From Alphaproteobacteria bacterium (lineage in GTDB: Bacteria; Pseudomonadota; Alphaproteobacteria; RF32; CAG-239): 64,000 nt of DNA. The position numbers and the translations under genes are program-made. Numbering within the stretch: the stretch's first letter is position 1; every line of letters begins with the position of its first letter. Location: the NCBI GenBank assembly GCA_045590955.1, contig JAZNSB010000003.1, positions 2,888 to 66,887 on the forward strand, in the 5' to 3' direction. The notes under the pieces were generated by a model. It was not told the DNA's origin. It ran no database searches and worked only from the letters and a program-made list of their open reading frames with translations. Of this stretch, positions 521 through 52,136 are shown piece by piece.

Positions 521-1019
521 CAAAGCAGATTTATTAATATACAAAGCCCTAAACAGTGCTTTTAAACAAAACAAATTAAGATTTTATCTTAATTATGAAA
601 AAATTAATCGCCCGGGGTCTCCTGTTTATAATCCTTGGGAGGTCTTGTTGCCCATTTTGGTGCCTGTTGTGCTTGGTGTTATACTTATCTTATGGACAAA
701 CATCCTTGTTGGAATTTTGTTTATTGTGGCGATGTTGTTGCTCTATATTCATTATGTAAAAAAACGCTTTTATTCTAATTTGGTAACTAGAACCAAAAAT
801 ATGATGGAAAAAGATCTTAATAGCTTTAAAACATTGTGGAATTATGGTGGTTTTGTATTGGTAAATGCAGAAAATAAAACTATAGGCTGTGTTGCACCGA
901 AAGGTGATTGGAAAGAGTTTGTTGTGCAAAATTTTGCTGATTTTATGGTTGAAAAAAAAGAAGAAAAAAAAGAAGAAGTTGTTATAGATGAAAAACCAAG
1001 ATCAAGAAGACGAAAATAA
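501..1019 (+). CDS. Hypothetical small membrane protein with two predicted TM helices and a K/E-rich C-terminus.
   Basis: 172-aa ORF with a hydrophobic stretch (LLPILVPVVLGVILILWTNILVGILFIVAMLLLYI). It overlaps the mltA 3' end and the smr 5' end in different frames. No recognisable domain. Confidence 0.4.
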   Translation: MLMKKNNKADLLIYKALNSAFKQNKLRFYLNYEKINRPGSPVYNPWEVLLPILVPVVLGVILILWTNILVGILFIVAMLLLYIHYVKKRFYSNLVTRTKNMMEKDLNSFKTLWNYGGFVLVNAENKTIGCVAPKGDWKEFVVQNFADFMVEKKEEKKEEVVIDEKPRSRRRK

Positions 1020-1470
1020 TTTTCAGGCTCTTATTGAAGGTGTTGAAAAAATAAAAACAAATAGTGTTTTTATTAAACCTAAGCAAATAAAAAAAATAAA
1101 AAAAGACAACAATTTTGTGCCGGAAAAAGATATTTCTGATTTAGGTTTTCTTGATGTTGGAAACCTGTCTTTCGTTGATAGAAATACTGCAAAAAAATTT
1201 AAAACCAGCAAATTAAAAATAGATGCAAGTATTGACTTACACGGTTTAACAGAAAAAGAAGCTTTTTCTGTTGTTTGTGATTTTGTAAAAGATTCTTACT
1301 CTAAGCGGTTTAGAAATATATTGATTATCACCGGAAATGGTGAATGTTTAAAAAACAGACTACCTGAATGGTTAAACACATATTTTAGATCTATTGTTCT
1401 TTGTTTTGTTCATCCTGCACAAAATAAGGGTGGGCAGGGAGCTTTGCAAATTTTATTAAAAAGGCATTAA
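988..1470 (+). CDS. Smr domain protein
   Basis: C-terminal Smr-like block IDLHGLTEKEAFSVVCDFVKDSYSKRFRNILIITGNG. It has the conserved position after mltA. Confidence 0.7.
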   Translation: MKNQDQEDENNFQALIEGVEKIKTNSVFIKPKQIKKIKKDNNFVPEKDISDLGFLDVGNLSFVDRNTAKKFKTSKLKIDASIDLHGLTEKEAFSVVCDFVKDSYSKRFRNILIITGNGECLKNRLPEWLNTYFRSIVLCFVHPAQNKGGQGALQILLKRH

Positions 1471-2153
1471 TTGTTCCATATTGCGTTTTTTAATTTGCTA
1501 TTTAAGAAATTTTCATGATTTTCCATTTCTTCTGCTGTTACATGAAAGTTTCTGGAAGGCTTAAAGCTTCTTTCTACTTCAACAACCAATGTTTGTGCTT
1601 TTTGCTGTACATCTGTTTTTAAAGCAAATACAGGTTCTTTTCCGCCAATGAGTTCAAGATATACCTGAGCAAGTAATTGGGAATCAAGAAGAGCTCCGTG
1701 AGATGTTCTGGAAGAATTGTCAACATTAAATCTTTTACAAAGGGCGTCTAAGTTATTTTTTGATCCTGGAAATTTTTTCTTAGCAATTTCCAGTGTATCT
1801 ATTACTCTTTCCCATGCAAAACCTTCTTTGTTTATATTGCTTAACTCTTGATTTAAAAACTTTATATCAAAAGAAGCATTATGGGCAACAAGCTTGGAAT
1901 CTGTTCCTACAAAATCCAAAAAATCATCTATTATATCTTCAAAAACAGGAAAATCCTGTAAAAATTGAGTTGACAGGCCATGTACTTTAAAAGCTTCTTC
2001 CGGCATGTCTCTTTGTGGATTAATATATTGATGGTATGTTCTTCCTGTAGGAATATGATTTTCTAATTCAACAGCACCTATTTCTACAATTCTATCACCA
2101 TTTTTTTCATCAAAACCTGTTGTTTCCGTATCAAATACAATTTCCCTTACCAT
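1467..2153 (-). CDS. dnaQ: DNA polymerase III epsilon subunit (3'-5' exonuclease)
   Basis: Exo I motif FDTETTG, then HNASFDIKFL and the HGALLDSQLLAQVY Exo III region. It sits upstream of coaE, as in alphaproteobacteria. Confidence 0.9.
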   Translation of the reverse strand: MVREIVFDTETTGFDEKNGDRIVEIGAVELENHIPTGRTYHQYINPQRDMPEEAFKVHGLSTQFLQDFPVFEDIIDDFLDFVGTDSKLVAHNASFDIKFLNQELSNINKEGFAWERVIDTLEIAKKKFPGSKNNLDALCKRFNVDNSSRTSHGALLDSQLLAQVYLELIGGKEPVFALKTDVQQKAQTLVVEVERSFKPSRNFHVTAEEMENHENFLNSKLKNAIWNN

Positions 2154-2731
2154 TATAAAATTCCGTCTATAATTAAAATGATTTCTTGTTTTAGTTTTTG
2201 AATACTTTTGTCTGTATTAATAAGAATATCAACTTTCTCTATTTTGTCTTTATTTTTTTGTTGTATTGTATATATGTTATTAAATTGTGTTTCTGATATT
2301 TTATCTCTGCGTAAAACTCTTTCTTTTTGTTTATCTTTTTCAAGAAAAACACCTATGGTTTTATAACAATATTTATCCCATCCCATTTCATATAAAAGAG
2401 CTAAATCAATAAAAAGAAGCTGACATTTTTTAGTATTTTTTCTTATTGTTGATTTAAGTTTATTAAAAACATATGGATGAATGATGTTTTCCAATGTTTT
2501 TAGTTTGTCGTGATCTTTAAAAACTATTTCTCTTAATGTTTTCTTGTTTATTTTTCCGTTTTCAAACACTTCAGGAAAGTATCTTTTAACGCAAGAAATA
2601 ACCGAAGTATTGCTGTAAGCTTTTCTTCCCCAAAAATCAGCATCAAAAACACAAAAACCCAAGTTTCTTACAATTTTTGCAATTGTTGATTTTCCACATC
2701 CAATAAAGCCGGTAATTCCTATTATTTTCAT
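2153..2731 (-). CDS. coaE: Dephospho-CoA kinase
   Basis: N-terminal P-loop GITGFIGCGKST. Size about 190 aa. Position dnaQ-coaE. Confidence 0.85.
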   Translation of the reverse strand: MKIIGITGFIGCGKSTIAKIVRNLGFCVFDADFWGRKAYSNTSVISCVKRYFPEVFENGKINKKTLREIVFKDHDKLKTLENIIHPYVFNKLKSTIRKNTKKCQLLFIDLALLYEMGWDKYCYKTIGVFLEKDKQKERVLRRDKISETQFNNIYTIQQKNKDKIEKVDILINTDKSIQKLKQEIILIIDGIL

Positions 2732-3199
2732 AAAAACCCTTTATTTTCAAATAGTTATAAATTATCAACAACCCATCTGCTTTTTGTGTATAAGTTACAA
2801 GAATAGTACTTTTTTGATTAATTATTCATGTTTACTTATTTTATTAAACAAAGTTATCCAGATGTGTATATGTTATGTTCACCTATAAGATATGTGAATA
2901 TAACTTTTTTATCAACAGTCTTTTGAGTTTTTTTAATATATTGTTTTCTTTATAAAAACCGCTTTTCTATACACACATTTTTCAACAGTTTTATTTGTGT
3001 GTATATTTCTGTGTATATTTTTTTATTTCACAATTTAACAGCCATCTACTAACAACAACAAATTTTTTAAATTTAAATGATAGGAAGGATTGATTGTGCA
3101 TAAGTTTTGAGTTTGACTTTTTAAAAAAACTAATATATATATGCAGCATATTTAATGTCTTATCCGGTTCCGGAAATTTTCATCAATATAGGAAAAATC

Positions 3200-4453
3200 A
3201 TGAATTTAAAACAGTTAAAAGAAAAAACTCCTCAGGAGTTATTAGAACAAGCTGAATCTTTGGGTATTGAAGATGCATCTTCAATGAGAAAACAAGATTT
3301 AATGTTTAGTATTTTGAAAAAAATAGCTTCTGATGACAGTGCAATTTTGGGCGAAGGCGTTATAGAAGTAATGCAAGATGGTTTTGGTTTCTTGCGTTCA
3401 TTAGAATCTAATTATTTAGCCGGTCCTGACGATATTTATGTATCTCCGGCACAGGTTAGAAAATATGCTTTGAGAACAGGCGATACTGTTGAAGGGGAAA
3501 TTAGAGCGCCAAAAGAAAATGAAAGATATTTTGCTTTAACAAAAATAAATAAGATAAATTTTGAAGATCCGGAACTTTCTAAGTTAAGGGTTAATTTTGA
3601 CAACCTTACACCTTTATATCCTACAAAAAAATTGGATTTTGATGTAATTTGCGGAGATAAAGATTATACGACAAGGGTAATTGATTTAATTGCACCTCAG
3701 GGAAAAGGACAAAGAGGTCTTATTGTTGCTCCTCCTAGAACAGGTAAAACGGTTATGTTGCAAAATATTGCTCATGCAATTGCAACAAAACATCCTGAAG
3801 TTCATCTTATGGTTCTTTTGATTGATGAAAGACCTGAAGAGGTTACGGATATGACGCGTTCTGTTAAAGGAGAGGTTATTTCATCTACCTTTGATGAGCC
3901 GGCATCAAGACACGTTCAGGTTGCTGAAATGTGTATTGAAAAAGCAAAACGTTTGGTAGAAATGAAAAAAGATGTTGTGATTTTGCTTGATTCAATAACT
4001 CGTTTGGGTAGAGCTTATAATACTGTTGTTCCTTCTTCCGGTAAGGTTTTAACCGGTGGTGTTGATGCAAATGCTTTACAAAGACCAAAAAGACTTTTGG
4101 GTGCTGCAAGAAATGTGGAAGAAGGTGGTTCTTTAACAATTATTGCAACAGCTTTGATTGATACAGGTTCAAGAATGGATGAAGTTATTTTTGAAGAATT
4201 TAAAGGAACCGGTAACTCTGAAATTATACTTGATAGAAAACTTACAGATAAAAGATTGTTCCCAACAATTGATATTACACGCTCAGGAACCAGAAAAGAA
4301 GAGCTTTTGGTTGATAAGGCAACTTTATCTAAAATGTGGGTATTAAGAAGAGTTTTAATGCAAATGGGAATGACGGATGGTATGGAATTCTTACTTGATA
4401 AACTCAAAGTAAGCAAAGATAACCAAGATTTTTTTAATACAATGAATCAGTAA
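3200..4453 (+). CDS. rho: Transcription termination factor Rho
   Basis: Full-length Rho: N-terminal [18 protein letters not shown]-binding domain GFGFLRS, Walker [10 protein letters not shown] and R loops. The ATG at 3200 is preceded by a GGAAAAA RBS. The ORF-track start at 3155 is probably too early. Confidence 0.95.
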
Positions 4454-8527: not shown

Positions 8528-8546
8528 GTCAAAAAAGGTATTAAAA

Positions 8547-8574
8547 AACCCCGCATTTTGCGGGGTTTTGTTTT
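8547..8574. terminator. Bidirectional rho-independent terminator between the convergent fabG and hydA genes.
   Basis: AAAAAACCCCGCAttttGCGGGGTTTTGTTTTT: a 6-7 bp GC stem flanked by an A-run and a T-run. Confidence 0.75.
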
Positions 8575-10346
8575 TATCTTTTAGCATATTTTGCTCTTGG
8601 AACATAATGCGTATGCAATAGTTCGTGAGCTTTGCCTTTTCCTGCTTCTCCCAAAAATTCTGTATATACTTGTTTTACAGATTCATTGTGGTGAGATAAT
8701 CTATTTGATGAATTTAGATCTTCTTTTAATAGACCTTGAGCTCTTTTTGCTCTGATTTCATCTGTAATTCCTCGGGGTTTTGGTTGATCAGGAAGCATTA
8801 CCCTTGGTTGTCCGCCACCGGCGATACAACCGCCACGGCAAGCCATAACCTCTACAAAGTGGTATGGAAGCTCTTCATTGTTTGCTTTTGCGTTGCGAAT
8901 CTGGTCTAACACTGTTTCAACATTTTTTGCACCGTGAGCAACTGCAATACGAACCTTTGTTCCGTTAATGTCTATTTCTGCTTTTTTGATACCGTCAAGA
9001 CCAACCACATCAACAAAATCTATGTTTCCAAGCTCTTTGCCTGTTACATAAAAGTATGCGGTTCTCAATGCTGCGGTCATTACGCCGCCGGTTACTCCAA
9101 AAATGGTGCCGGCACCGGTGTATTCTCCAAGAGGAGAATCTGCCGGTTCTTCAGGAAGTTTTCTGAAAGCAATACCGGCTTGTTTTATCATGCGACAAAG
9201 CTCTCTTGTGGTAAGAGAAACGTCAACATCTTGATAACCGGAAGAAGACATGTCTTCAGAACGCTGAATCTCCCATTTTTTGGCAGTGCAGGGCATAACC
9301 GAAATCACACGAATGTTTGCCGGATCAAGATTCATTTTTTGAGCATAATATGTTTTTGCTAAAGCACCAACCATTGCTTGAGGTGATTTGCATGTAGAGA
9401 AGTTTGGTATCATATCTTGATGATATTTTTCCATAAGATCAACCCATGCAGGACAACAAGATGTCATCAACGGCAGTTTTTCAGGTTCTGATGTAAATCT
9501 TTTTACAAATTCTGTTGCTTCTTCAATAATTGTTAAGTCAGCACCAAAGTTTGTGTCAAAAACCTTGTCAAAACCAAGTCTGCGCAATGCTGCATATGTT
9601 TTTCCTGTTAAATTTTCTCCAAAATCATAGCCGAACTCTTCGCCAATTGCTACTCTTACGGCAGGAGCAATTTGAACAATGGTTGTTATGTTTGGGTCAT
9701 TTATCATGTCCCAAACTTTTTGTGTTTCGTCATATTCAACAATTGCACCTGTCGGACAGTGAGCAGAACATTGTCCACATTTTATGCAAGGGCTGTCTGC
9801 TAAAGGAATGCCACCGGCGGCAGAAATTCTTGTGGCAAGACCTCTGTTTAAGAAGCTTAGAGCCCAAACGTTTTGTTGGTTTTGACAAACGTCTACACAG
9901 CGTCCACAAAGCACACATTTATCTGGGTGTAAAACAATAGATTTAGTAGAATCGTCGGAAGGCAACCCTTTTACCAAAGATGGCAAATCTTCATTTTCAA
10001 TACCGAAAGAGTGTGCCAAATCTTGCAATTCACAATGTCCTGAGCGCAAACACGTTAAACACTGATTAGGGTGTGCTGACAAAATAAGCTCTAAAACAGA
10101 TCTGCGAACAGAAACAATTTCTGGATCTGAGGTGATAATTTTCATTCCTTCAGCAACAGGTGTGCAACAAGATCTTAAAATTCTACCATTAACCTTTACA
10201 ATGCATATACCACAACCGGCAGAAGGGTCTACATCGGGGTGCTTACAAAGGGTTGGAATATCAATTTGAACGGTTCTTGCGGCTTCTAAAATGGTTGTAC
10301 CCTCAGGAACATCTACTTCAAATTTATCAATTGTGATTTTTACCAT
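8574..10346 (-). CDS. hydA: [FeFe]-hydrogenase catalytic subunit (group A, M3 architecture)
   Basis: N-terminal plant-type 2Fe-2S domain. The His-ligated cluster HPNQCLTCLRSGHC. Two ferredoxin-like CxxCxxCxxxCP motifs. H-cluster motifs L1 TSCCPAWV, L2 MPCTAKKWE and L3 EVMACRGGCIAGGGQP. The ATG at 10346 sits 1 nt after the hydB stop, with a GGAGGA RBS. Confidence 0.9.
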   Translation of the reverse strand: MVKITIDKFEVDVPEGTTILEAARTVQIDIPTLCKHPDVDPSAGCGICIVKVNGRILRSCCTPVAEGMKIITSDPEIVSVRRSVLELILSAHPNQCLTCLRSGHCELQDLAHSFGIENEDLPSLVKGLPSDDSTKSIVLHPDKCVLCGRCVDVCQNQQNVWALSFLNRGLATRISAAGGIPLADSPCIKCGQCSAHCPTGAIVEYDETQKVWDMINDPNITTIVQIAPAVRVAIGEEFGYDFGENLTGKTYAALRRLGFDKVFDTNFGADLTIIEEATEFVKRFTSEPEKLPLMTSCCPAWVDLMEKYHQDMIPNFSTCKSPQAMVGALAKTYYAQKMNLDPANIRVISVMPCTAKKWEIQRSEDMSSSGYQDVDVSLTTRELCRMIKQAGIAFRKLPEEPADSPLGEYTGAGTIFGVTGGVMTAALRTAYFYVTGKELGNIDFVDVVGLDGIKKAEIDINGTKVRIAVAHGAKNVETVLDQIRNAKANNEELPYHFVEVMACRGGCIAGGGQPRVMLPDQPKPRGITDEIRAKRAQGLLKEDLNSSNRLSHHNESVKQVYTEFLGEAGKGKAHELLHTHYVPRAKYAKR

Positions 10347-10347
10347 A

Positions 10348-12024
10348 TTATTTTTCCTCCTTTGCTTCTTCATTAACCTTTTCCAGATATTCATTTTCAT
10401 AGAAATGAAGTGTGGAAAGAACGGGGTTTGGAGCTGTTTGACCTAAACCACACAAAGAAGCTTTTTGCATTGCTGTTGCAATTTGTTTAAGTTTTTCAAT
10501 GTCTTTTTTTGTTGCTTCACCGTCATTTATTTTTTTGAGCAAAGACAACATCTGTTTTCCACCAATTCTGCATGGAGCGCATTTACCACAAGATTCATCT
10601 ACTGTAAAGTCAAGATAGAAACTGGCAAGCTTTACCATGTCTTGAGTGTCATCAATAACAATCATACCGCCTGAACCCATAATAGACCCAACCTCTTTTA
10701 AGGCATCATAACAAACACCAAGGTCAAGTTTGTCGGCCGGAATCACACCTCCCGAAGGGCCTCCTGTTTGTACAGCTTTTAATTTTTTACCACTGGGAAC
10801 ACCACCGCCAATTTCGTTTACAATTTCATTTATGGAAGTACCCATTGGAATTTCTATTAATCCGGAATGTTCAACTTGTCCGGTTAAAGCAAAAACCTTG
10901 GTTCCTTTTGAGGTTGCGGTTCCAAAAGATGCAAACCAATCGGCACCCTTTAATATAATAGAAGGAATGTTGCCCAAAGTTTCAACATTGTTTACACAAC
11001 TTGGCTTGTCCCACAATCCTTTGTTTGTAGGATAAGGAGGTCTTGGACGAGGAGTTCCTCTGTGTCCTTCTATTGAACGGATTAAAGCTGTTTCTTCTCC
11101 GCAAACAAAAGCTCCGGCACCAAGACGAATATCTATATCAAAAGAAAAGTCTGTACCCATAATGTTTTTGCCAAGCAAAAGAGTTTTTTTGCAACTTTTT
11201 ATTGCTTTACTAATTCTTTCCACGGCAAGAGGATATTCTGCTCTGATATAGAACCAACCTTGTGTTGCGCCAGTAGCATATGCAGCAATCATCATACCCT
11301 CAATAACAGCATGAGGGTCTCCCTCTAAGATACTTCTGTCCATGTATGCGCCAGGGTCTCCTTCGTCACCATTACAGATAATAAATTTTTCATCAACGGT
11401 TGGAACTTTTGCTGCAAGCTCCCACTTCATGCCGGTGGAGAATCCACCACCACCACGACCGCGTAGGCCTGATTTTTTGATTTCTTCAACAACTTGAGCC
11501 GGTGTCATGGTTTTCAAAACTTTTTCTAAAGCCAAATATCCGCCCCTGGCAATATATTCTTGAATATCTTCCGGGTTAATAAGACCGGCGTTTTGAAGAA
11601 CAACCTTCTTTTGTTTTGTAAAGAAAGGCAGTTCTAAAGAAAGGATGTGTTGTTCTAATTTTTCCGGCATTTTGTATTGTTCATCTTTAACGGCAGGAAC
11701 AACGTATTCTAACATGATTTCTTTGAGGCTTTCAGCTGTTAATCTTTTGAACAAAACATCTTTTCTGCCTTTTATTTCTACCCTAACAAGAGGTCCTTGA
11801 GCACACAAGCCCATACAACCTGTTGGAACAAGACGTATTTTATCCTGAAGACCTTGCTCCTCAATAATAGAGCTCATTTCTGTCAAAAGGTCATCTGCAC
11901 CGGAAGATTTACATCCGGTTGAGTGGCAACAATAAAGGTGGGCAACAAAGGAATCCAGTTCGTTTTTTTTGTTTTGCGCAATTGCATGAATGTTAAATCT
12001 TGGGTCGTTTTGTAAATCTACCAT
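10348..12024 (-). CDS. hydB: NuoF-like NADH-binding flavoprotein subunit of the trimeric [FeFe]-hydrogenase (HydB)
   Basis: N-terminal thioredoxin-like 2Fe-2S domain (CCHSTGC...GCMGLC). NuoF core with GRGGGGFSTG and the FMN/NADH motifs. C-terminal 4Fe-4S CGKCAPCR. Confidence 0.9.
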   Translation of the reverse strand: MVDLQNDPRFNIHAIAQNKKNELDSFVAHLYCCHSTGCKSSGADDLLTEMSSIIEEQGLQDKIRLVPTGCMGLCAQGPLVRVEIKGRKDVLFKRLTAESLKEIMLEYVVPAVKDEQYKMPEKLEQHILSLELPFFTKQKKVVLQNAGLINPEDIQEYIARGGYLALEKVLKTMTPAQVVEEIKKSGLRGRGGGGFSTGMKWELAAKVPTVDEKFIICNGDEGDPGAYMDRSILEGDPHAVIEGMMIAAYATGATQGWFYIRAEYPLAVERISKAIKSCKKTLLLGKNIMGTDFSFDIDIRLGAGAFVCGEETALIRSIEGHRGTPRPRPPYPTNKGLWDKPSCVNNVETLGNIPSIILKGADWFASFGTATSKGTKVFALTGQVEHSGLIEIPMGTSINEIVNEIGGGVPSGKKLKAVQTGGPSGGVIPADKLDLGVCYDALKEVGSIMGSGGMIVIDDTQDMVKLASFYLDFTVDESCGKCAPCRIGGKQMLSLLKKINDGEATKKDIEKLKQIATAMQKASLCGLGQTAPNPVLSTLHFYENEYLEKVNEEAKEEK

Positions 12025-12027
12025 GTT

Positions 12028-12510
12028 CTACTCCTTTGTTTCTTGAGCAAAAGTGTCTTTCCACTCTTGGATAATATCTTTAACCATGTCGGGGGTTACT
12101 CGACCATAAGTTTTTCCGTTGATAACACAAACAGGCGCAAGACCACAACAACCAACACAGCGCACACATTGTAGGTGGAACATTTTATCGTTTGTGGATT
12201 GACCTTCTTGTATGCCAAGCTCTTTTTTAAATTCTTCTAAAACGGCATCGTTGCCTTTTAAGAAGCACGCAGTTCCTGTGCAAACAGAAATTACGGCTTT
12301 TCCAGGACTTTCAAGTTTAAACAAATTATAAAAAGTTAAAACTTCATAGACCTTTGCCAAAGGAACATTCATGTGTTCGGCAAGCTCTGCGGCGTCTTCC
12401 CAGGGAACATACCCTTTTATATCTTGGATTTCGTGGAGGGCCATAATAAGAGAACCTCTCTTTTTTGCCCATTTTTTTGCGGTTTGTACTGCAATACTTG
12501 TGTCTGTCAT
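12028..12510 (-). CDS. hydC: NuoE-like 2Fe-2S subunit of the trimeric [FeFe]-hydrogenase (HydC)
   Basis: Thioredoxin-like ferredoxin fold with CTGTAC...CVRCVGCCGLAP. The ATG at 12510 is preferred over the TTG at 12531 used by the ORF track. Confidence 0.8.
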   Translation of the reverse strand: MTDTSIAVQTAKKWAKKRGSLIMALHEIQDIKGYVPWEDAAELAEHMNVPLAKVYEVLTFYNLFKLESPGKAVISVCTGTACFLKGNDAVLEEFKKELGIQEGQSTNDKMFHLQCVRCVGCCGLAPVCVINGKTYGRVTPDMVKDIIQEWKDTFAQETKE

Positions 12511-12670
12511 ATTTTTTTCTTTCAAAATCAAAAAACAATGTGTTTTATTGTAACCGTTATTTGTTAAAATGCACTTAAATTTTTATTTTGATAAACCATT
12601 TTTTACAAAAAAATAAGAAATTTTGTTTTTTTTAGTTTTATTATAAGAAAATGCGGTTATAATCACTCCC

Positions 12671-13795
12671 ATGAAAAAAATAACATGGTATATTGCAAAA
12701 CAAACAATAGTTGGTTTTTGTGTGGTGTGTTTCTCTTTGATGTCAGTGTTGTGGCTTACACAATCACTGCGTTTTGTTGAGCTTATCACAAACAAAGGAA
12801 TCTCAATGAGCATCTTTGCAGAGCTTACAACTTTATTGATGCCTAGAATTTTTGTTGTTTTGGCACCACTATCTGTTTTTGCTGCCGTAATGTTTACCTA
12901 TAACAGAATGCTGTCAGACAGAGAGTTGGTGGTAATTAAATCTGCCGGAATTTCTTCTTGGCAAATTGTTAAACCGGCGTTGCTTGTTGGTTTTGTTCTG
13001 TCTTTTGTCTGTTTGTTTGTATACAATATTACAATTCCGTGGGCAGAAGTTAAGTTTAGGGAATTGCAGTGGAAGGTTGAACATGACGTGTCTCATCTTA
13101 TGTTTAGAGAGGGTGAGTTTGTAAGCTTGCAACCGAGGTTGATGGTGTTTATTGCGTCGCACGAAAAAGATGGTGCGGTTAAGGGTGTTTTGGTAAATGA
13201 CGAAAGAAAACCAACAAAAAAAGTAACGCTTTCTGCTGAACTTGGCAGGGTGATTTATACAGATAAAGGACCAAAGGTTTTGTTGGTAAATGGTTCAAGA
13301 CAAGAGCTTGATCTAGACACAAAACAGTTTTCCAGCCTTTTCTTTGAAAGACATTCTATGGATTTTGGGGAGGGTTTTGAAAAAAACAAAAGAACACGTA
13401 TAAGTCCGAGAGAAAAAAGTTTATATGAATTGCTGACAGCCTCTAATGATAAAACGCTATCAAAAACAGATATAAACAAATACTTGGTTGAGGGAAACAA
13501 AAGGTTGTTTGCAGCGTTTTATAATATACTTTTTGCTCTGTTGGGCTGTTTAGGTCTGGTTTTAGGCAACTTTAACAGAAGGGGGCAGATTAAAACAATT
13601 TCTATATCTATTTTTGCGATGGTATTTGTTTTAGCGCTGGATTTAATGTTACAAAATATGGCGGCTAAACACATTTTTTTATTGCCGGTGTTGTATGCAA
13701 ACCTTTTGTTGCCAATGTCTTTTTGTTTGTTTTTGCTCTTTTTTTATACCCCGGGAATGTTTCAAAAACTGCGGAGATCGGTGCATGAAAAATAA
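12671..13795 (+). CDS. lptG: LPS export ABC permease, LptF/LptG family; probably LptG given its position directly upstream of lptD.
   Basis: YjgP/YjgQ-family topology. The MKKITWYIAKQ N-terminus is typical of the family. It overlaps the lptD start. Confidence 0.75.
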   Translation: MKKITWYIAKQTIVGFCVVCFSLMSVLWLTQSLRFVELITNKGISMSIFAELTTLLMPRIFVVLAPLSVFAAVMFTYNRMLSDRELVVIKSAGISSWQIVKPALLVGFVLSFVCLFVYNITIPWAEVKFRELQWKVEHDVSHLMFREGEFVSLQPRLMVFIASHEKDGAVKGVLVNDERKPTKKVTLSAELGRVIYTDKGPKVLLVNGSRQELDLDTKQFSSLFFERHSMDFGEGFEKNKRTRISPREKSLYELLTASNDKTLSKTDINKYLVEGNKRLFAAFYNILFALLGCLGLVLGNFNRRGQIKTISISIFAMVFVLALDLMLQNMAAKHIFLLPVLYANLLLPMSFCLFLLFFYTPGMFQKLRRSVHEK

Positions 13796-22946: not shown

Positions 22947-23531
22947 ATGAACACACTAATTTTTGCATCTAAAAATGCCGGAAAAATAAAAGAAATAAAA
23001 CAGATTTTAGCCCCTTTTCAAATAGAGGTAAAAACAGCTTTGGATTTTAACCTGCCAGACGTTGAAGAGACGGGAAAAACTTTTGTTCAAAATGCTCTGT
23101 TGAAAGCCGAAACAATAGCAGAAATTATGAAAATGCCGGTGTTGGCAGATGACAGTGGTTTGTGTGTTGATGCTTTAGGCGGAGCTCCGGGAGTGTTTTC
23201 TGCCAGATATGCACCAACATCCGAAGAAGCAAACAAGAAGCTGATACAAGAGTTAAAAGCATTGCAAACAAACAATCTTTCGGCACATTTTGAGTGTGTA
23301 ATGGCGCTGGTTGTTCCCGGTAAAGACAGTTTTGTTTTTGATGGGCGGGTTGATGGAAAAATTGTTTTTGAACCCAGAGGAACGGGATTTGGTTATGATC
23401 CGATTTTTGTTCCTGAAGGTTACAATGAAACATTTGGACAGATGTTGCCAGAACAGAAGAATAAAATTTCTCACAGAGGAAGGGCTATGCAGAAGTTTAT
23501 AGGATTTTTAAATGAAACGAAAACTTTTTAA
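22947..23531 (+). CDS. rdgB: dITP/XTP pyrophosphatase (RdgB/Ham1)
   Basis: FASKNAGKIKEI N-terminus and the Ham1 family motifs SGRGTGFGYDPIF-like (EPRGTGFGYDPIF). Confidence 0.9.
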   Translation: MNTLIFASKNAGKIKEIKQILAPFQIEVKTALDFNLPDVEETGKTFVQNALLKAETIAEIMKMPVLADDSGLCVDALGGAPGVFSARYAPTSEEANKKLIQELKALQTNNLSAHFECVMALVVPGKDSFVFDGRVDGKIVFEPRGTGFGYDPIFVPEGYNETFGQMLPEQKNKISHRGRAMQKFIGFLNETKTF

Positions 23532-26403
23532 TGTTCCTTTAAGTTGTGATTTTGTTAATGTTTTAGCTCATAGCTTTTTGCAAAAGTATGCACAAAACCT
23601 TACAGATCTTGCGGATGTTTTGTTTATTTTGCCGTCACAGAGGGCAATTAAAGAATTGCAGACGGCTTTTTTTGAAAGAATGGGAAATAAGACCATCTTT
23701 TTACCACAAATGGTGGCAATCGGCAACATAGAACAAGAGGATGTTTTTGCCGACGTTTTTGATAACGAAGTGCTGATAAAGAGCTTATGTCCCACAATAA
23801 ACAAGACGCAAAGACTTTTTTCTTTTGTTAAACTAATTCAAAAAATGATGGCACAACAACCCGACGAAAGGGTTTCTTTGAAGCAAGCATTCTTTTTGGC
23901 AAATTCTTTGGCAAAGCTAACGGATACTGTAAATAATGAAGAACTTTCTTTTGATTGTTTGCAAAATTTGGTTCCCGAAGAATATGCCGAGCACTGGCAA
24001 AAAACTTTGGATTTTTTGAAAATAATTACACAGTTTTGGCCACAAATTCTAAGAGAAAAGGGTTTGCAAGATGCCACATTTAACCAGGTTTTAATGCTTA
24101 AAACACAAGCAGAGATTTGGAAAAAACAGAATACAAAAAAGAAGATTGTGGTAGCTGGAACAACAGCAACATTTCCTGCAATGAAAAGTTTTGTTAAAAC
24201 CGTGTTAGAACTTGAAAACGGAGAGGTATATTTGTATGGTTTGGACAAACATCTTTCTCCAGAAGATTGGGATAAGATAGATATTACCCATCCCCAGTTT
24301 GAACTAAAAGAGTTGTTGTTTTTTTTGCAAGAAGACAGAGAAGGTGTGGCAGATGTTTGTTTGCCAAAAAACAGCACCAGGGAAGATTTTCTCAGTGAAG
24401 TGATGCGACCGGCGGCAACAACCCAAAAGTGGAGAAGTGTGCAAAAAAATACAGATTTGTTCTCCGGAATAGACATGGTTGTTTGTAAAGAACCGCAAGA
24501 AGAAGCTTCTGTTATTTCTTTAATTTTGAGAGAAGCCTTACAGCACAATAAAACAGCAAGATTGGTTACAACAGACAGGGGGTTGTCTCGCAGGGTGGTT
24601 GGCGAGCTGAAAAGGTGGAATATTGAGGTAGATGATTCTGCAGGATATCCGCTGTTAACAACTCCGGTGGGAACTTTTTTGCGGCTGATATATAACTATG
24701 TTTTGTCCGGTTTTTCAAAAATTGAAACATTGGCGCTTTTGAAACACCCCTTTTGTGCGCTGGAACAAGATTATGCAGACATAAGGCTTTTGACCAGAAA
24801 AATGGAAATAGAGCTGTATAGAAAAAACAAAGAAGATTCACAATTGCAACACTTGGAACAAACACTCAAGGTGTTTGCAGAACCGTTAAGATGTTTGTTG
24901 CAAGAAAAGGCAACAAATCTTTCTGATTTGCTTAATGCGCATATTGTGGTTGCAGAAAAAATCGCCTCAACATCTGATAAAGATGGTGCAAGTGTTTTGT
25001 GGAAGGGGTCGGATGGTGAAGCTTGTGCAAAAATGTTTGCAGATATTTTGGAAAACGCAGACGCTCTGGGAGAGATTGAAACAGAAGAGTATATTGGTTT
25101 AATTGAAGCAATGATGTCTTTTGTGATGATTAGAAACAAGTATCAAACAAGCGAACAAATTAAGATTTTGGGGCCGATTGAGGCCAGATTAACGCAGGCC
25201 GATATAACCATTGTTGGCGGACTTAACGAGGGATGTTTCCCCTTAACCCCAGAAACAGATCCTTGGATGTCAAGAGGAATGAAAAAAGACTTTGGATTGC
25301 CTCTACAGGAAAAAAGCATTGGAATTTTGGCGCATGATTTTTGTGCAATGACAGCATCCGGCAAAGTATATTTGACCAGATCTGAGAGAGTTGATGGCGC
25401 ACCAGCATCTTGTTCCAGGTGGATTATGCGTATGCAAACAGTAATTGAGGCGCTTGGCGGAAATGTGGAAGAATGGCAAAAACAAGCACAAAGATATAAA
25501 GATTGGGCACAAAAACTTTTTGAGCCCGACAAGATTTATACAATAGCACCTCCTTCACCAAGGCCTCCGGTAAAAAGCAGACCAAGAGAATTGTCTGCAA
25601 CAAACGTAGAAAAACTTGTGAGAGATCCATATCAGATTTTTGCATCAAAAATTTTGGGATTAAAAAAACTGGAGGATGTACAAAAAGATCCTTCTCAGGC
25701 TGATTATGGCAGCATTATTCATAAAATTTTACAAAAGTTTAACGAAAAATATCCTAAAAAGTTGCCAGAAAACGCCAAGCACGAACTTTTGGATTTGGGA
25801 AAAGAAATGTTTGCTCATAATTTATTATCGGCAGAAAAAATGGCTTTTTGGTGGCCAATGTTTGAGCAAACGGTGGATTGGTATTTGGAAACAGAACAAG
25901 AATACAGAGAAAAAATTTGCAAAACATTTGCAGAACAAGAAGGTGAATATCTTTTCAACACATCTTATGCTCCGTTTAAACTTACGGCAAAAGCAGACAG
26001 AATAGATTGGACGGTAGAAAACGAGCTTAATATTATAGATTATAAAACAGGTAAACTTCCTTCAAAAGCAGATGTAAAAAACGGCTGGTCTCCTCAGCTT
26101 GTGGTTGAGGCAATTATCGCAAAAAATAATGGTTTTAAAAATCTACCGCAAAATGTTGCAATTGGACAGCTTGCATATTGGAAACCAAAAACAAAGCCAA
26201 CGATTTTAGATGGGGGTGTAGATGCTTTTGTGCAGGAAAGAGAGTTGGCAATTAAAAAAATGATTGAAGAATATGACGAGCAGTCTAAACCTTATGAGTG
26301 TCGTCCGGTTCCTAAAAAAGCTCCAAGCTATTCGGATTATGAACACTTGGCCAGAGTGGATGAGTGGAGCGCAAAGGGTGAGGAGGAAGAAGATGACAAC
26401 TGA
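23512..26403 (+). CDS. addB: Double-strand break repair protein AddB (alphaproteobacterial type)
   Basis: 963 aa. A C-terminal PD-(D/E)XK nuclease with IIDYKTGK. Immediately upstream of addA and overlapping it. Confidence 0.8.
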   Translation: MKRKLFNVPLSCDFVNVLAHSFLQKYAQNLTDLADVLFILPSQRAIKELQTAFFERMGNKTIFLPQMVAIGNIEQEDVFADVFDNEVLIKSLCPTINKTQRLFSFVKLIQKMMAQQPDERVSLKQAFFLANSLAKLTDTVNNEELSFDCLQNLVPEEYAEHWQKTLDFLKIITQFWPQILREKGLQDATFNQVLMLKTQAEIWKKQNTKKKIVVAGTTATFPAMKSFVKTVLELENGEVYLYGLDKHLSPEDWDKIDITHPQFELKELLFFLQEDREGVADVCLPKNSTREDFLSEVMRPAATTQKWRSVQKNTDLFSGIDMVVCKEPQEEASVISLILREALQHNKTARLVTTDRGLSRRVVGELKRWNIEVDDSAGYPLLTTPVGTFLRLIYNYVLSGFSKIETLALLKHPFCALEQDYADIRLLTRKMEIELYRKNKEDSQLQHLEQTLKVFAEPLRCLLQEKATNLSDLLNAHIVVAEKIASTSDKDGASVLWKGSDGEACAKMFADILENADALGEIETEEYIGLIEAMMSFVMIRNKYQTSEQIKILGPIEARLTQADITIVGGLNEGCFPLTPETDPWMSRGMKKDFGLPLQEKSIGILAHDFCAMTASGKVYLTRSERVDGAPASCSRWIMRMQTVIEALGGNVEEWQKQAQRYKDWAQKLFEPDKIYTIAPPSPRPPVKSRPRELSATNVEKLVRDPYQIFASKILGLKKLEDVQKDPSQADYGSIIHKILQKFNEKYPKKLPENAKHELLDLGKEMFAHNLLSAEKMAFWWPMFEQTVDWYLETEQEYREKICKTFAEQEGEYLFNTSYAPFKLTAKADRIDWTVENELNIIDYKTGKLPSKADVKNGWSPQLVVEAIIAKNNGFKNLPQNVAIGQLAYWKPKTKPTILDGGVDAFVQERELAIKKMIEEYDEQSKPYECRPVPKKAPSYSDYEHLARVDEWSAKGEEEEDDN

Positions 26404-29400
26404 TGTTTTGCAAAAGAAAAAAGAAGTAAAACTCCAAATTGCACAAAAACAGCAGAGACAGGCATCAGACCCTGATTTTTCTGTGTGGGTAGAGGCTTCG
26501 GCAGGAACCGGCAAAACCAAGGTTTTAACAGATAGAGTATTAAGGCTTTTGTTGAGAGGTGTAAATCCGGCAAAAATTTTGTGTTTGACATATACCAAGG
26601 CAGCAGCTGTGGAAATGGCGGAAAGAATTGCAAAAAAACTGTCTTTTTGGACAATATGTGATGAGCTTGTGTTGCTTGAAGAATTGGAAAAATTGTTTGG
26701 TTACCCACCCACAGAAGAACAAACCTCTTTTGCCAGAAGACTTTTTGCAAAAACATTGGAGCTATTAAAGGGAATGAGAATCCAAACAATTCATAGTTTT
26801 TGCCAAGAGGTATTAAAAAAATTTCCATTTGAAGCAAATATATCTCCATACTTTGAGGTGATGGACGATAGAGCTTCCAGCCAAGCGTTAGCTGAAATCA
26901 AAAAACAAATGTTTGAAGATTTGTATAAGCAAAACAACCTTAAAGAGGCTGATGCGCTAGGGGTTTTGCTGTCACAGCTTTCCGAAAAACAACTCTTGGA
27001 GGTGTTGGGGTTTATTACTGTAAACAGAATAAAAATTACGGAATTGTTGCAAAAAAAAGACGCAGAAAAACTGCTTGTGGACTTGCAAGAGGAGTTAAAT
27101 GTTGACCCTTTGCAGACAAAAGAAGAGGTTTTGAAAGATTTTTTTGCAAGGCAGAACATGCAAGAAATTTGCAAATCTTGTGTTCATATTAATAAAATTA
27201 CAGCACAACAGCTTGGAAAAATAAACCAAGCACCTAGTAAGGCGTTAAAGTTTAGTAAACTTTTAGATTGTTTGTTCAAAGAAAAGGATGGACGAAGGGC
27301 TATTAACAAAACGGCTTCAACGGAAGATGTGTTGATAATAAACACACTTATGCAAGACTGCGAACAAACCATAGAACATCTAAAGGCAATGGACTTGTAT
27401 GCGGCAACATCGGCGGTTTTGTTGTTGGCTAACTATATGATAAAAGCGTATGCTGATTTTAAACAACAAAATACAAAATACGATTATGAAGACCTGATTG
27501 TTATTACTAAAAATTTGTTGGAAAACAAAAGTGTAAAAGATTGGGTTTTGTATAAACTGGATGATGGAATAGACCATATTTTGATTGACGAAGCTCAAGA
27601 TACATCCCCATTGCAATGGAGTATAGTGAGCTCTTTGACAGATAACTTTTTTGCAGAAGAAAATTCTGGTAAAACGTTGTTTGTGGTAGGGGATAGAAAA
27701 CAGTCAATATACAGCTTTCAAGGAGCTGACATAAATGTTTTTGAAAATATGCGACAAAAGTTTTTGAAACACAAATCTTTTCAAGAGGTAAAGCTGGATA
27801 TTTCTTTTAGGTCTGTTTCTGCGGTTATGGATGTGGTAAACCATGTTTTTAATGGCGAAAACATGCAACAAGCTGTTGGGCAACAGGTTTTTCATGATCC
27901 TGCAAGAGAAGGTGAGGCCGGAAGGGTTGAGTTGTGGAAAATTCCTACAAAAGAAGAGCTTCTTTTTACTCATAAAACAGTGTTTTTGGCTAGGAAGATT
28001 GTGGCAAAAATCAAAAAAATGGTGGCTGAAAAAGAAATGCTTCAATCTCAGGGGCGGCCGGTAACTTTTGGTGATTTTTTGGTTTTGGTGCGAACAAGAG
28101 GTGATTTTGCAGATAACTTTATTAAAGAATGTAAGTCTCAAAATGTGCCGGTTTCAGGTGCAGACAGGCTTTTTGTTATGAAAGAAGTGGCTGTAAAAGA
28201 CCTGATGTGTTTGGCAAATTTTTTGCTGCTACCTCAAGATGATTTGAATTTGGCAACACTGTTAAAATCTCCGTTGTTTGGGCTTAATGATGACGATTTG
28301 TTTGAACTTTGTTACAAAAGATATCCACTTTCTTTGTGGCAAAGATTATCTCATAACGAAAGATTTAAAAACACATACAAAGAGCTGCAACAGCTTTTAG
28401 ACATGACAGATTTTGTACGCCCTTATGAGCTTTTTTCTTTTGTGCTAATCAATATGAGAGGAAAACAAAAGTTTGTTGAAAGACTGGGTTTTGAGTGTTT
28501 GGATGCTATTGAAGAGTTTTTGAATCTGGCTTTGCAATTTGAAAAAGAAAATCCCCCGTCTTTGCAAAAATTTGTGGAATGGGCAAAAGGGGGTGATTTG
28601 CAAATTAAAAGAGATATGGACGGAGGAAACAATAATTTTGTGCGGATAATGACGGTTCATGCATCAAAGGGGTTGCAGGCTCCGATTGTTATTTTGCCGG
28701 ATACAACATCTTTCCCCTCTTCAAGTAAGATAAAAAGAATGTTGTGGGACAAAGATTTGTTTTATGTGCCATTGTCTGCAGCTCAGTATGAAAAAACAAC
28801 AACAGATTTGTTAAAAAAATTGGCTCAAAACGAACATCAAGAGTATTTGCGGTTGTTGTATGTGGCAATGACAAGGGCTGAAGACAGGCTGTGTATTTGC
28901 GCTCATTCTCAAGAAAAAGCCACTTCCTGGTATGATTTTTGTAAAAAATCATTATTAAAAATAGGGTCTGAAACATTAGATGGCGAGTTGGTTTGTGATT
29001 GTGAACAGCAAAAAGAGGTTAAAGAATCTGCAATAAAAAAGAAGACTGTTGCGCAAGAAGATGTGCCTGATTGGTTGTTTGTTGAGCCGGAAAAACAACC
29101 GACAAAAGTTGTTGTAATTAATCCGTCGGTTGTTGATGATGAAGATGTGGCGGTTTCTCCACGAGAACAAAACATATATTTAAGAGGAAATGCAATACAC
29201 AAGCTTTTGCAAACAATAGGCTCTGTGAAAAAAGAAAGCAGACCAAGATTTATTAAAGAATTTTTATCAAAACAACTTCCGGAAGTAACGCAAAAAGTGG
29301 TTATGAAAATAGCTGAAGACGTGGAAGAATTGTTAAACAAATATGGTTTTCTTTTTGGGGACAATTCCAGAGCGGAAATGCCTGTTGTGGGCGAGCTTGA

Positions 29401-29632
29401 TGATAAAATTGTAATGGGTCAAATTGATAGGGTTGTTTTTCAAGAAAACAAGATAATTATAATAGACTATAAAACTAACAGAGAGGCCGCACAGACGATC
29501 AATGATGTGCCTAAAAAATATATTAAGCAAATGAATTTATATAGCCAATTGGTAGAAAAAATGTTTCCGGATAAAAAGATTGAGGCATATATTTTATGGG
29601 TTGCGTCTTGCGATTTGATGAAGATTTTTTAA
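26393..29632 (+). CDS. addA: Double-strand break repair helicase-nuclease AddA (UvrD-like)
   Basis: Walker A EASAGTGKTKVLTDR. UvrD helicase motifs. A C-terminal nuclease with IIDYKTNRE. The ATG at 26393 follows an AGGAGGAAG RBS. Confidence 0.85.
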   Translation: MTTDVLQKKKEVKLQIAQKQQRQASDPDFSVWVEASAGTGKTKVLTDRVLRLLLRGVNPAKILCLTYTKAAAVEMAERIAKKLSFWTICDELVLLEELEKLFGYPPTEEQTSFARRLFAKTLELLKGMRIQTIHSFCQEVLKKFPFEANISPYFEVMDDRASSQALAEIKKQMFEDLYKQNNLKEADALGVLLSQLSEKQLLEVLGFITVNRIKITELLQKKDAEKLLVDLQEELNVDPLQTKEEVLKDFFARQNMQEICKSCVHINKITAQQLGKINQAPSKALKFSKLLDCLFKEKDGRRAINKTASTEDVLIINTLMQDCEQTIEHLKAMDLYAATSAVLLLANYMIKAYADFKQQNTKYDYEDLIVITKNLLENKSVKDWVLYKLDDGIDHILIDEAQDTSPLQWSIVSSLTDNFFAEENSGKTLFVVGDRKQSIYSFQGADINVFENMRQKFLKHKSFQEVKLDISFRSVSAVMDVVNHVFNGENMQQAVGQQVFHDPAREGEAGRVELWKIPTKEELLFTHKTVFLARKIVAKIKKMVAEKEMLQSQGRPVTFGDFLVLVRTRGDFADNFIKECKSQNVPVSGADRLFVMKEVAVKDLMCLANFLLLPQDDLNLATLLKSPLFGLNDDDLFELCYKRYPLSLWQRLSHNERFKNTYKELQQLLDMTDFVRPYELFSFVLINMRGKQKFVERLGFECLDAIEEFLNLALQFEKENPPSLQKFVEWAKGGDLQIKRDMDGGNNNFVRIMTVHASKGLQAPIVILPDTTSFPSSSKIKRMLWDKDLFYVPLSAAQYEKTTTDLLKKLAQNEHQEYLRLLYVAMTRAEDRLCICAHSQEKATSWYDFCKKSLLKIGSETLDGELVCDCEQQKEVKESAIKKKTVAQEDVPDWLFVEPEKQPTKVVVINPSVVDDEDVAVSPREQNIYLRGNAIHKLLQTIGSVKKESRPRFIKEFLSKQLPEVTQKVVMKIAEDVEELLNKYGFLFGDNSRAEMPVVGELDDKIVMGQIDRVVFQENKIIIIDYKTNREAAQTINDVPKKYIKQMNLYSQLVEKMFPDKKIEAYILWVASCDLMKIF

Positions 29633-51625: not shown

Positions 51626-52135
51626 TTGACTGAAAAGGCAGTCATAAATAATTGTGTTATGGAAAAAAAACCAATACCGATGCCTCTGGGGTTTAAAGTT
51701 GAAGTAAAATTTCTTGCGGCAGAGCAGGTGTCAAAAAACAACGTGTGCTCTACCATGGTCTTTGAACGAGAAGGAAAATCTTGCTACTGTGTATGGAGTG
51801 GAGATTATACCGGAAAAGGACCTTGCAGGGGCTATTTGGTAAGAAAAACAGACGTTCCCGGCGAATGGATTGTCGCCAAGGGTGAGTTGGTAGAAAAGTA
51901 TCTCCAAGAGGTAAATTTCTGGGTGAAGAAAGCGGTTCAAATCGTAACCGGCAAGGCTGACGTGGAGGTTGATTACTCCTGTGGTCAGACCTTATTCTCT
52001 AACGAACGCAAATATAAGCGTTGCTATGAAATTTTAAATGAAAAACTTGGGTTTCCTCTTGAATGGATGGGGTTGTCTAAAATGGACTATGCCTTGATGA
52101 TTTATGAGAGAAACGGCATTTTTAATGAAATCTGA
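51626..52135 (+). CDS. Hypothetical Cys-rich protein (169 aa) with no recognisable domain.
   Basis: A clean ORF with about ten Cys residues. The local GC is visibly higher than in neighbouring genes. A possible alternative start is MEKKPIP at 51659. Confidence 0.45.
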   Translation: MTEKAVINNCVMEKKPIPMPLGFKVEVKFLAAEQVSKNNVCSTMVFEREGKSCYCVWSGDYTGKGPCRGYLVRKTDVPGEWIVAKGELVEKYLQEVNFWVKKAVQIVTGKADVEVDYSCGQTLFSNERKYKRCYEILNEKLGFPLEWMGLSKMDYALMIYERNGIFNEI

Positions 52136-52136
52136 T

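Follow-up and report, generated by a model that had tools for sequence, protein, structure and literature searches.

We analyzed a 64,000-nucleotide stretch of genomic DNA from an Alphaproteobacteria bacterium (assembly GCA_045590955.1, contig JAZNSB010000003.1), which we call the window and whose coordinates we use throughout. An earlier note, made from the sequence alone, had described a complete three-gene [FeFe]-hydrogenase operon in this window, hydC-hydB-hydA, with gaps of 1-3 nt between the genes and a GGAGG motif inside the 3' end of hydB. Direct reading of the sequence bore this out, and we found three co-directional minus-strand open reading frames (ORFs), complete and intact, where that note had placed them. 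The predicted product is a HydABC-type enzyme whose flavoprotein subunit, HydB, ends before the C-terminal iron-sulfur domain of its characterized electron-bifurcating relatives. The genes and the signals around them are as follows.

12028-12510, minus strand: hydC, NuoE-like thioredoxin-fold [2Fe-2S] subunit, 160 amino acids (aa) from ATG 12510
10348-12024, minus strand: hydB, NuoF-like flavin mononucleotide (FMN)/NAD(P)H flavoprotein, 558 aa
8574-10346, minus strand: hydA, M3-type group A [FeFe]-hydrogenase catalytic subunit, 590 aa
12031-12036, minus strand: AAGGAG ribosome-binding site for hydB, within the 3' end of hydC, read directly as ...AAGGAGTAG AAC ATG...
10356-10360, minus strand: GGAGG ribosome-binding site for hydA, within the 3' end of hydB, read directly as ...AAGGAGGAAAAATAA T ATG...
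8545-8569, no strand assigned: hairpin from a terminator scan, 11-bp stem with 6 GC pairs, AAAACCCCGCATTTTGCGGGGTTTT then GTTTTTAT

The gene extents in the earlier note held as ORFs and as coordinates, while two of the starts needed correction. The longest hydA ORF (8574-10400) would encode the 608 aa given there; because a database protein (P0001) is identical to the 590-aa form, we set the start at ATG 10346. The longest hydC ORF begins at TTG 12531 (12028-12531, 167 aa), and the start is probably ATG 12510 instead. The hydC stop codon, TAG (12028-12030), is followed after 3 nt by the hydB ATG at 12024, and the hydB stop codon, TAA (10348-10350), is followed after 1 nt by the hydA ATG at 10346. 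These junctions show hydC, hydB and hydA to be translationally coupled. The hairpin downstream of hydA is perfectly symmetric and G+C-rich (AAAACCCCGC-ATTTT-GCGGGGTTTT), with A and T runs on either side, and sits between the convergent genes fabG (stop at 8527) and hydA (stop at 8574). From its sequence and position it is probably a bidirectional intrinsic terminator that ends both the hyd and the fabG transcripts. Scanning for promoters returned nothing in the 139-bp intergenic region between hydC and lptF; overall, there were 14 promoter-like matches against 9.7 +/- 2.9 expected, an unconvincing enrichment.

HydA contains Pfam domains Fer2_4, NADH-G_4Fe-4S_3, two copies of Fer4, Fe_hyd_lg_C and Fe_hyd_SSU (PF02906, 323 bits; PF02256, 74 bits). 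It exceeds the cut-off of the NCBIfam model for group A [FeFe]-hydrogenases (TIGR02512; 510 bits, cut-off 406) and that of NF040763 ('NADH-dependent [FeFe] hydrogenase, group A6'; 780.2 bits, cut-off 765), whose 'group A6' label has no traceable definition separating bifurcating from non-bifurcating enzymes and was not used as evidence of mechanism. Published usage of 'A6' is inconsistent: one preprint applies it to acetogen enzymes, another paper to NADH-dependent ones (10.64898/2026.06.24.733704, PMC10579272). Using the patterns TSCCPxW (L1), MPCxxKxxE (L2) and ExMACxxGCxxGGGQP (L3), we located all three H-cluster motifs in the 590-aa protein: TSCCPAW at residues 295-301 (window 9444-9464), MPCTAKKWE at residues 351-359 (9270-9296) and EVMACRGGCIAGGGQP at residues 499-514 (8805-8852). 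Together with the Fe_hyd_lg_C and small-subunit domains, they mark HydA as a group A [FeFe]-hydrogenase. An N-terminal [2Fe-2S] site, a His-ligated [4Fe-4S] site (HxxxCxxCxxxxxC) and two CxxCxxCxxxC motifs form the F-domain typical of the M3 type (residues 34-61, 92-105, 144-154 and 187-197; window 10164-10247, 10032-10073, 9885-9917 and 9756-9788). Motifs, Pfam and NCBIfam therefore agree with the H-cluster signatures and M3 accessory clusters claimed in the earlier note, and HydA is a real [FeFe]-hydrogenase that does not fall with NuoG or formate dehydrogenase.

We compared the operon with relatives found by scanning GTDB with each species represented by one genome; at least 534 contig stretches matched, and the comparisons use the best 80. 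The H-cluster cysteines of HydA are invariant in 78 of 78 orthologues, and every HydA ligand tested is invariant or close to it across 77-78 of them. The closest solved relatives of HydA are HydA1 of Thermoanaerobacter kivui and of Acetobacterium woodii (E ~5e-174), followed by Clostridium pasteurianum CpI (E ~1e-140). HydC matches Pfam 2Fe-2S_thioredx (PF01257, 163 bits), the solved structure closest to it is T. kivui HydC (8a6t_C, E 8e-39), and its Cys77, Cys82, Cys118 and Cys122 are invariant in 77 of 77 orthologues.

HydB consists of a thioredoxin-like 2Fe-2S domain (residues 29-106; PF01257, 29 bits), Complex1_51K (PF01512, 149 bits), SLBB (PF10531/PF22461) and NADH_4Fe-4S (residues 466-548; PF10589, 104 bits), and ends at residue 558. 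The earlier note's NuoF-like subunit with an extra N-terminal thioredoxin-like 2Fe-2S domain, and its NuoE-like partner, are thus both recovered by Pfam. Judged through these Pfam equivalents, HydB has the FMN-binding, SLBB and Nuo51 4Fe-4S domains of the Bfu family (IPR011538, IPR019554, IPR019575), and the [2Fe-2S] sites of HydC (IPR002023) and of the HydB N-terminus are likewise present, with all eight cysteines kept in 76-77 of 77 orthologues. Within HydB, the ligands of the N-terminal 2Fe-2S cluster (Cys33/38/70/74) and of the core 4Fe-4S cluster (Cys479/482/485/525) are invariant or nearly so in ~77 orthologues; the N-terminal domain is less conserved than the core (59% versus 84% mean identity to the window protein). 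What HydB lacks is the C-terminal 4Fe-4S ferredoxin-type domain (IPR017896) that carries clusters B3 and B4: we found no Fer4-family Pfam match in the protein, which stops ~7-10 residues past the NADH_4Fe-4S core. The earlier note had read the operon as having the architecture of electron-bifurcating hydrogenases, a claim that overlooked this missing 2x[4Fe-4S] domain and does not stand as worded.

Alignment to solved enzymes delimits the missing part. HydB matches its best solved bifurcating relatives, from A. woodii and T. kivui, with E 6e-195, and aligns to residues 8-529 of 599 in A. woodii HydB, to residue 560 of 630 in T. kivui and to residue 559 of 626 in Thermotoga maritima; the last ~70 residues of 7q4v_B, 8a6t_B and 7p5h_B have no counterpart. 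The characterized bifurcating HydB proteins (A. woodii, 599 aa; Acetomicrobium mobile NiFe-HydB, 597 aa; T. kivui, 630 aa; T. maritima, 626 aa) are all ~70 residues longer at this end. The short form is clade-wide, as 78 of 78 orthologous ORFs end no more than 11 residues after a conserved NPVLSTLxFxxxEY helix. Because hydA starts 1 base past the hydB stop and every one of these orthologues is short, the sequences indicate that the shortness of HydB is not an assembly or frameshift artefact. In other respects the A. woodii and T. kivui HydABC enzymes (7q4v/8a5e, 8a6t) resemble the window enzyme. They have the same three subunits and the same M3 architecture of HydA, lacking the additional C-terminal domain seen in T. 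maritima HydA, and their HydB shares with that of the window the N-terminal 2Fe-2S domain, the FMN/NADH site with A-x-M and F, GGPSG and cluster B1. Unlike the window protein, it bears ~70 more residues with B3/B4, the proposed or observed ferredoxin branch.

This tail has been given a role in mechanism. Schut et al (2022; PMC9304861) defined the Bfu family partly by the IPR017896 domain, with non-bifurcating homologues lacking the extra clusters. Katsyv et al (2023; PMC10021017) placed the ferredoxin branch in the HydB tail and found that deletion of P565-G630 in T. kivui left low bifurcation activity. In the work of Xiao et al (2025; PMC12018979), ferredoxin docks between the BfuC C-terminal domain and the BfuB ferredoxin-like domain, with a low-potential path C1->B3->B4->ferredoxin.

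Losey et al (2020; PMC7311640) proposed residues that distinguish bifurcating from non-bifurcating subunits: the former have A/E and M close to the NADH site, F close to FMN, and GGPSG within the SLBB region, and the latter have T/S, K/S/A, Y and no GGPSG. We matched these positions (232/234, 367 and 427-431 in T. maritima HydB numbering) by motif rather than by formal alignment, and in the window HydB the corresponding stretches are GDPGAYMDR (222-230), GAGAFVCGEE (from 302) and GGPSG (421-425). In an exhaustive HydB search covering 1.84 billion cluster representatives, we found one close relative outside the gut clade, P0125 (62% identity, 565 aa), which is also short; all others are ~50% identical or lower. 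Nearly all representatives with bifurcating-type signatures have a ~65-residue tail with two CxxCxxCxxxC motifs. The tail-less exceptions are P0125, P0131, P0132 and P0174, as judged from BLAST-delimited cores with which Pfam agrees; in the canonical neighbors P0127 and P0153, Pfam detects the C-terminal Fer4 dicluster domain.

C-terminal fusions vary among the nearest HydB relatives outside the clade (P0129, P0126, P0130, P0142 and P0146). In P0129 (1034 aa) the HydB core is fused to Fer4_20 and Pyr_redox_2 domains (GltD-like), and P0126 has a second NADH_4Fe-4S stretch. Judging from these sequences, domain swapping appears to concentrate at the position that follows the NuoF core.

We placed the short proteins in a bootstrapped neighbor-joining tree of the NuoF core (200 replicates; not a likelihood analysis), with the following support.

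Gut clade: 200/200
Gut clade with P0125: 193/200
Gut clade with P0125 and P0131: 157/200 (less secure)
Non-bifurcating T/K/Y-type separated from all others, including the gut clade: 187/200
P0153 as sister to the short-tail clade: 85/200, fewer than half of the replicates

The locus as a whole is best explained, from its predicted proteins, as encoding a cytoplasmic heterotrimeric HydABC-type [FeFe]-hydrogenase of an uncultured, strictly anaerobic gut alphaproteobacterium of the 'Azospirillum sp. CAG:239'/CAG:495/Ca. Scatocola lineage. For its function we favor, with about even confidence, a reversible NAD(P)H:H+ oxidoreductase that would be derived from the bifurcating family and would have no obligatory, tightly coupled ferredoxin branch, because the B3/B4 branch as currently understood is physically absent. 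Going by solved homologues, electrons would pass in either direction between the H-cluster, the HydA accessory clusters, the HydB [4Fe-4S] cluster B1, FMN and NAD(P)+/NAD(P)H, with the HydC [2Fe-2S] cluster (C1) and the N-terminal [2Fe-2S] cluster of HydB predicted to flank the flavin. Such an enzyme would not be a canonical confurcating hydrogenase. It might instead act as a redox valve, interconverting H2 and NAD(P)H in a direction set by the H2 partial pressure; thermodynamics in the gut might often favor H2 uptake, or else confine H2 release to places where H2 stays low. Similar reasoning was applied in a study of Pelomyxa, in which eukaryotic long hydrogenases without the extra cluster(s) were called NADH-only (PMC10579272).

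The proposed functional analogues are Syntrophomonas wolfei Hyd1ABC and Syntrophus aciditrophicus HydAB (Losey 2017, 2020; PMC7311640), trimeric or fused enzymes whose beta subunit is also without C-terminal Fe-S clusters. Unlike the window HydB, their beta subunits have no N-terminal 2Fe-2S domain, carry T/S..K and Tyr at the marker positions and have no GGPSG. The absence of C-terminal clusters is the sole point at which the window protein matches the non-bifurcating S. wolfei Hyd1ABC type.

Several observations weigh against an NAD(P)H-linked enzyme, and most of them speak for a true electron-bifurcating or confurcating HydABC on which a free 2x[4Fe-4S] ferredoxin would dock directly at HydC/HydB in place of the lost domain. 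Such an enzyme would draw on NADH and reduced ferredoxin together to form H2. We regard this alternative as a serious one, if short of an even chance. The window HydB has the bifurcating-type residues of Losey et al, as do 79-80 of the 80 clade members, and it retains the N-terminal [2Fe-2S] domain that is absent from S. wolfei-type subunits; the parts of the flavobicluster (FMN, B1 and C1) are all conserved. Each of the three subunits has a bifurcating enzyme as its nearest solved relative, and the tree sets the clade apart from the non-bifurcating type with the 187/200 support given above. A small 2x[4Fe-4S] ferredoxin is encoded in the window, and pyruvate:ferredoxin oxidoreductase (PFOR) is present in relatives (PMC4967309). 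NADH-only H2 production is feasible only at 2-40 Pa H2 (PMC7311640), a limit that suits a gut fermenter poorly unless the enzyme works mainly in the uptake direction. Finally, the T. kivui C-terminal deletion kept some activity, and by analogy a direct route from C1 to ferredoxin is conceivable (PMC10021017).

Standard gut surveys would also label this enzyme as A3, 'bifurcating'. Under the operational rule for that group, a group A HydA must have a gene with a NuoF domain (HydB) within two genes (10.64898/2026.06.24.733704), and here hydB lies directly upstream of hydA with a 1-nt gap; the rule tests adjacency only, not bifurcation. Against a bifurcating enzyme stands the absence of the B3/B4 module across the whole clade. 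All characterized Bfu enzymes have this module, which forms part of how the family is defined (PMC9304861); it is the ferredoxin-docking partner seen by experiment (PMC12018979), and its deletion strongly lowers bifurcation (PMC10021017).

Within the NuoF superfamily, the sequence of HydB places it on the bifurcating (Bfu/HydB) branch. The simplest reading, which we favor, is that the ferredoxin-like domain was probably lost secondarily from a bifurcating-type ancestor. More tentatively, we suggest that the gut clade together with P0125 (193/200), and less securely P0131 (157/200), may carry a natural 'C-terminal-deletion' HydB with a complete Bfu flavobicluster core, representing either a minimal bifurcating hydrogenase or an intermediate on the way to an NADH-only enzyme.

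A very unlikely alternative is that the hydrogenase is non-functional in this genome for want of the maturases HydE, HydF and HydG. As the earlier note had stated, no maturase gene lies in the 64-kb window: family scans of the plausible ORFs gave no HydE, HydF or HydG, and tblastn of the window with HydF and HydG from relatives gave nothing beyond background GTPase-domain matches in infB and ychF. The visible part of the genome is just 64 kb, however, and maturase genes are usually unlinked. Relatives carry HydF (L035, 13045-14244, minus strand; 511 bits, cut-off 326) and HydG (L080, 2202-3617, minus strand; 898 bits, cut-off 312; partial copy at L077:2-619), and hydF/hydG lie within a few kb of hydCBA in some related metagenome-assembled genomes (MAGs), which is not the case in most loci or in the window. 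All three maturases have been reported in CAG:239, CAG:260, CAG:977 and CAG:267 (PMC4967309). All ligands and motifs are moreover intact and under purifying selection across orthologues.

The ferredoxin and an Nfu Fe-S carrier that the earlier note had placed near the operon do exist as genes; both fall below their NCBIfam cut-offs.

63260-63496, minus strand: 2x[4Fe-4S] ferredoxin, 78 aa (FdxA model 96.9 bits, below the cut-off of 135)
59719-60249, minus strand: Nfu-like protein with the C-terminal NifU-like domain only (50 bits, cut-off 269)

Because they lie 47-51 kb from the operon, linkage gives no evidence of a partnership with the hydrogenase.

We also considered whether the operon is foreign, having entered the contig through mis-binning or chimeric assembly of a Firmicute fragment or through very recent horizontal transfer. 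Firmicutes and Thermotogae predominate in the HydA and HydB families, and the GC content of the operon (0.39-0.40) slightly exceeds the median of 0.363 for the window. The hyd genes are nonetheless typical of the window in third-position GC content (GC3; 0.276-0.333 versus a median of 0.2975) and in codon-usage distance (0.114-0.177 versus a median of 0.157), and housekeeping genes flank them on both sides of a single contig. AddB and AddA both pass the alphaproteobacteria-specific equivalogs, AddB with 820 bits against a cut-off of 486 (TIGR02786) and AddA with 990 bits against 861 (TIGR02784); the Gram-positive AddA model gives 279 bits on the window AddA, below its cut-off of 708. The hydC-hydB-hydA genes are adjacent in 76-78 of the 80 relatives, and the lptF-lptD-surA-rsmA side is syntenic in ~47 of them. 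Since the clade HydB is only ~50% identical at most to anything beyond P0125, any transfer must be ancient. The presence of lipopolysaccharide (LPS) export genes (lptF-like, lptD, surA-like and lptG) excludes a Firmicute origin, and the gene content identifies the contig as alphaproteobacterial. Codon usage, synteny and the alpha-type AddAB genes indicate that the operon is native to this genome and an old, vertically inherited feature of the lineage; a foreign origin is effectively refuted.

All of the best 80 relatives are MAGs from gut or rumen, with HydA identities of 64-81%. Record titles among them include Alphaproteobacteria bacterium, uncultured Azospirillum sp., Azospirillum sp. 51_20, Proteobacteria bacterium CAG:495, Rhodospirillales and Ca. 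Scatocola, in agreement with an alphaproteobacterial host; in the 'Azospirillum sp.' and CAG:495 records, HydA is 76-80% identical. We take their lineage to be GTDB order RF32, family CAG-239. One record, L045 (JAISVX010000001.1), is titled 'Lactobacillaceae bacterium', a label that could be taken as a sign of foreign origin; it contains the same hydCBA genes, with 76% HydA identity and a clade-typical short HydB, and its taxonomic label is probably wrong. The operon is common in gut and rumen alphaproteobacteria, occurring in at least 80 species-level MAGs, and is not the rarity that the earlier note had expected. That note's anaerobic alphaproteobacterial host, by contrast, agrees with the AddAB equivalogs, the LPS-export genes and the codon usage, and close relatives are strict anaerobes: a 2019 paper classed CAG:239 as a strict anaerobe without any terminal oxidase (PMC6431628).

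Along the window, the gene order is rho, ftsK, fabD, fabG, hydABC, lptF-like, lptD, surA-like, rsmA, xerD, glgA-like, grpE, rph and rdgB, and further along addB, addA, clpA-like, cysK, lptG, nusA, infB, truB, pnp, pth, ychF, gloB and murJ. Of the alphaproteobacterial synteny described earlier, AddAB, lptD, surA, rsmA, pth and ychF were recovered. The LPS permease gene adjoining hydC (12671-13795) is lptF-like rather than lptG, scoring 218.8 bits with TIGR04407, just below the cut-off of 230; the true lptG lies 25 kb away at 38438-39547 (243.7 bits, cut-off 240), so that lptF and lptG are unlinked here. The rplY assignment was unconfirmed for the ORFs upstream of pth at the NCBIfam threshold used. 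We dismissed a small conserved ORF at 12583-12813 (minus strand; 35 tblastn hits) as an opposite-strand shadow of the conserved 5' region of lptF. The longest addA ORF (26264-29632, from TTG 26264) overlaps addB (23512-26403) by 140 nt; the addA_alphas alignment starts at residue 63, which places the real addA start probably ~180 nt downstream. GC content dips to 0.28-0.29 at positions 1001-4000, compared with ~0.36 elsewhere, and an ORF at 2153-2731 has a GC content of 0.25 and a GC3 of 0.16. Four ORFs have no NCBIfam match: 41271-42536 (minus strand, 421 aa), 60253-61251 (minus strand, 332 aa), 51626-52135 (plus strand, 169 aa) and 52104-52637 (plus strand, 177 aa). We found no tRNA and no Rfam family match in the window.

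The earlier note had also equated the operon with the subunit set of hydrogenosomes. The hydrogenosomal 51- and 24-kDa subunits of Trichomonas and anaerobic fungi belong to the same superfamily and form an NADH-oxidizing flavoprotein module that feeds a hydrogenase (PMC13556243). HydB scores 652 bits against A. woodii HydB and ~290 bits against mitochondrial NDUFV1, and it falls below the cut-offs of all NuoF equivalogs (TIGR01959, 470.9 against 558.65; NF010120, 381.3 against 389; NF008436, 376.5 against 749). Complex-I NuoF, in addition, is without the N-terminal 2Fe-2S domain of the window HydB. Because of these bit scores and failed cut-offs, HydB and HydC are judged on sequence not to be orthologues of hydrogenosomal or complex-I NuoF/NuoE, and the likeness is one of kind only. 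Published trees agree. Eukaryotic NuoE/NuoF group with alphaproteobacterial complex I, with HydB/HydC distant and eukaryotic HydA polyphyletic (PMC7449678), and NuoF of fungal hydrogenosomes falls with mitochondrial complex I rather than with HydB (PMC13556243).

The gene trio itself is already in the literature. In human-gut MAGs named Azospirillum sp. CAG:239 and CAG:260 and Acetobacter sp. CAG:977 and CAG:267, Degli Esposti et al (2016; PMC4967309) reported an M3-type [FeFe]-hydrogenase with NuoE/NuoF-like genes, three maturases, PFOR and a short ferredoxin, and argued for an alphaproteobacterial ancestry of eukaryotic hydrogenases in the context of mitochondrial origin. CAG:239 and CAG:977 represent the same lineage as the window, with the same trio, and the same evolutionary argument was made there. 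In the parts of that paper available to us, the extra N-terminal 2Fe-2S domain of the HymB-like subunits is recorded and the missing C-terminal ferredoxin domain is not mentioned. A search for literature on RF32 or CAG-239 with hydrogenase turned up only survey papers. Because its nearest HydA relative is only 81% identical, the window comes from a species distinct from the MAGs of 2016, and its operon extends an already published set by one species. The relevance to mitochondrial or hydrogenosomal origin raised in the earlier note opens no new line, as the argument dates from 2016 and later phylogenies, which place neither eukaryotic NuoE/F nor HydA firmly with these genes, are less favorable to it.

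As a case of an anaerobic, H2-metabolizing alphaproteobacterium, the locus thus adds nothing new: lineage, trio, maturases and evolutionary argument were published in 2016. The one feature worth specialist attention is the clade-wide short HydB. In a survey from 2026, 26% of human gut species fell under the label 'electron-bifurcating A3' (10.64898/2026.06.24.733704); the equation of group A3 with bifurcation may be wrong for this lineage, and it can hide enzymes without a ferredoxin branch. A widespread, naturally short HydB offers an inexpensive test of the role of B3/B4 in the still-debated Bfu mechanism, and of whether abundant gut Alphaproteobacteria make or consume H2. If the enzyme still bifurcates, it would be a minimal bifurcating hydrogenase in which B3/B4 are dispensable, contradicting how the Bfu family is currently defined. 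Otherwise, the clade would be an intermediate caught in the act, residue-based 'bifurcation markers' would be unreliable and many 'group A3' calls in the gut would be mis-assigned.

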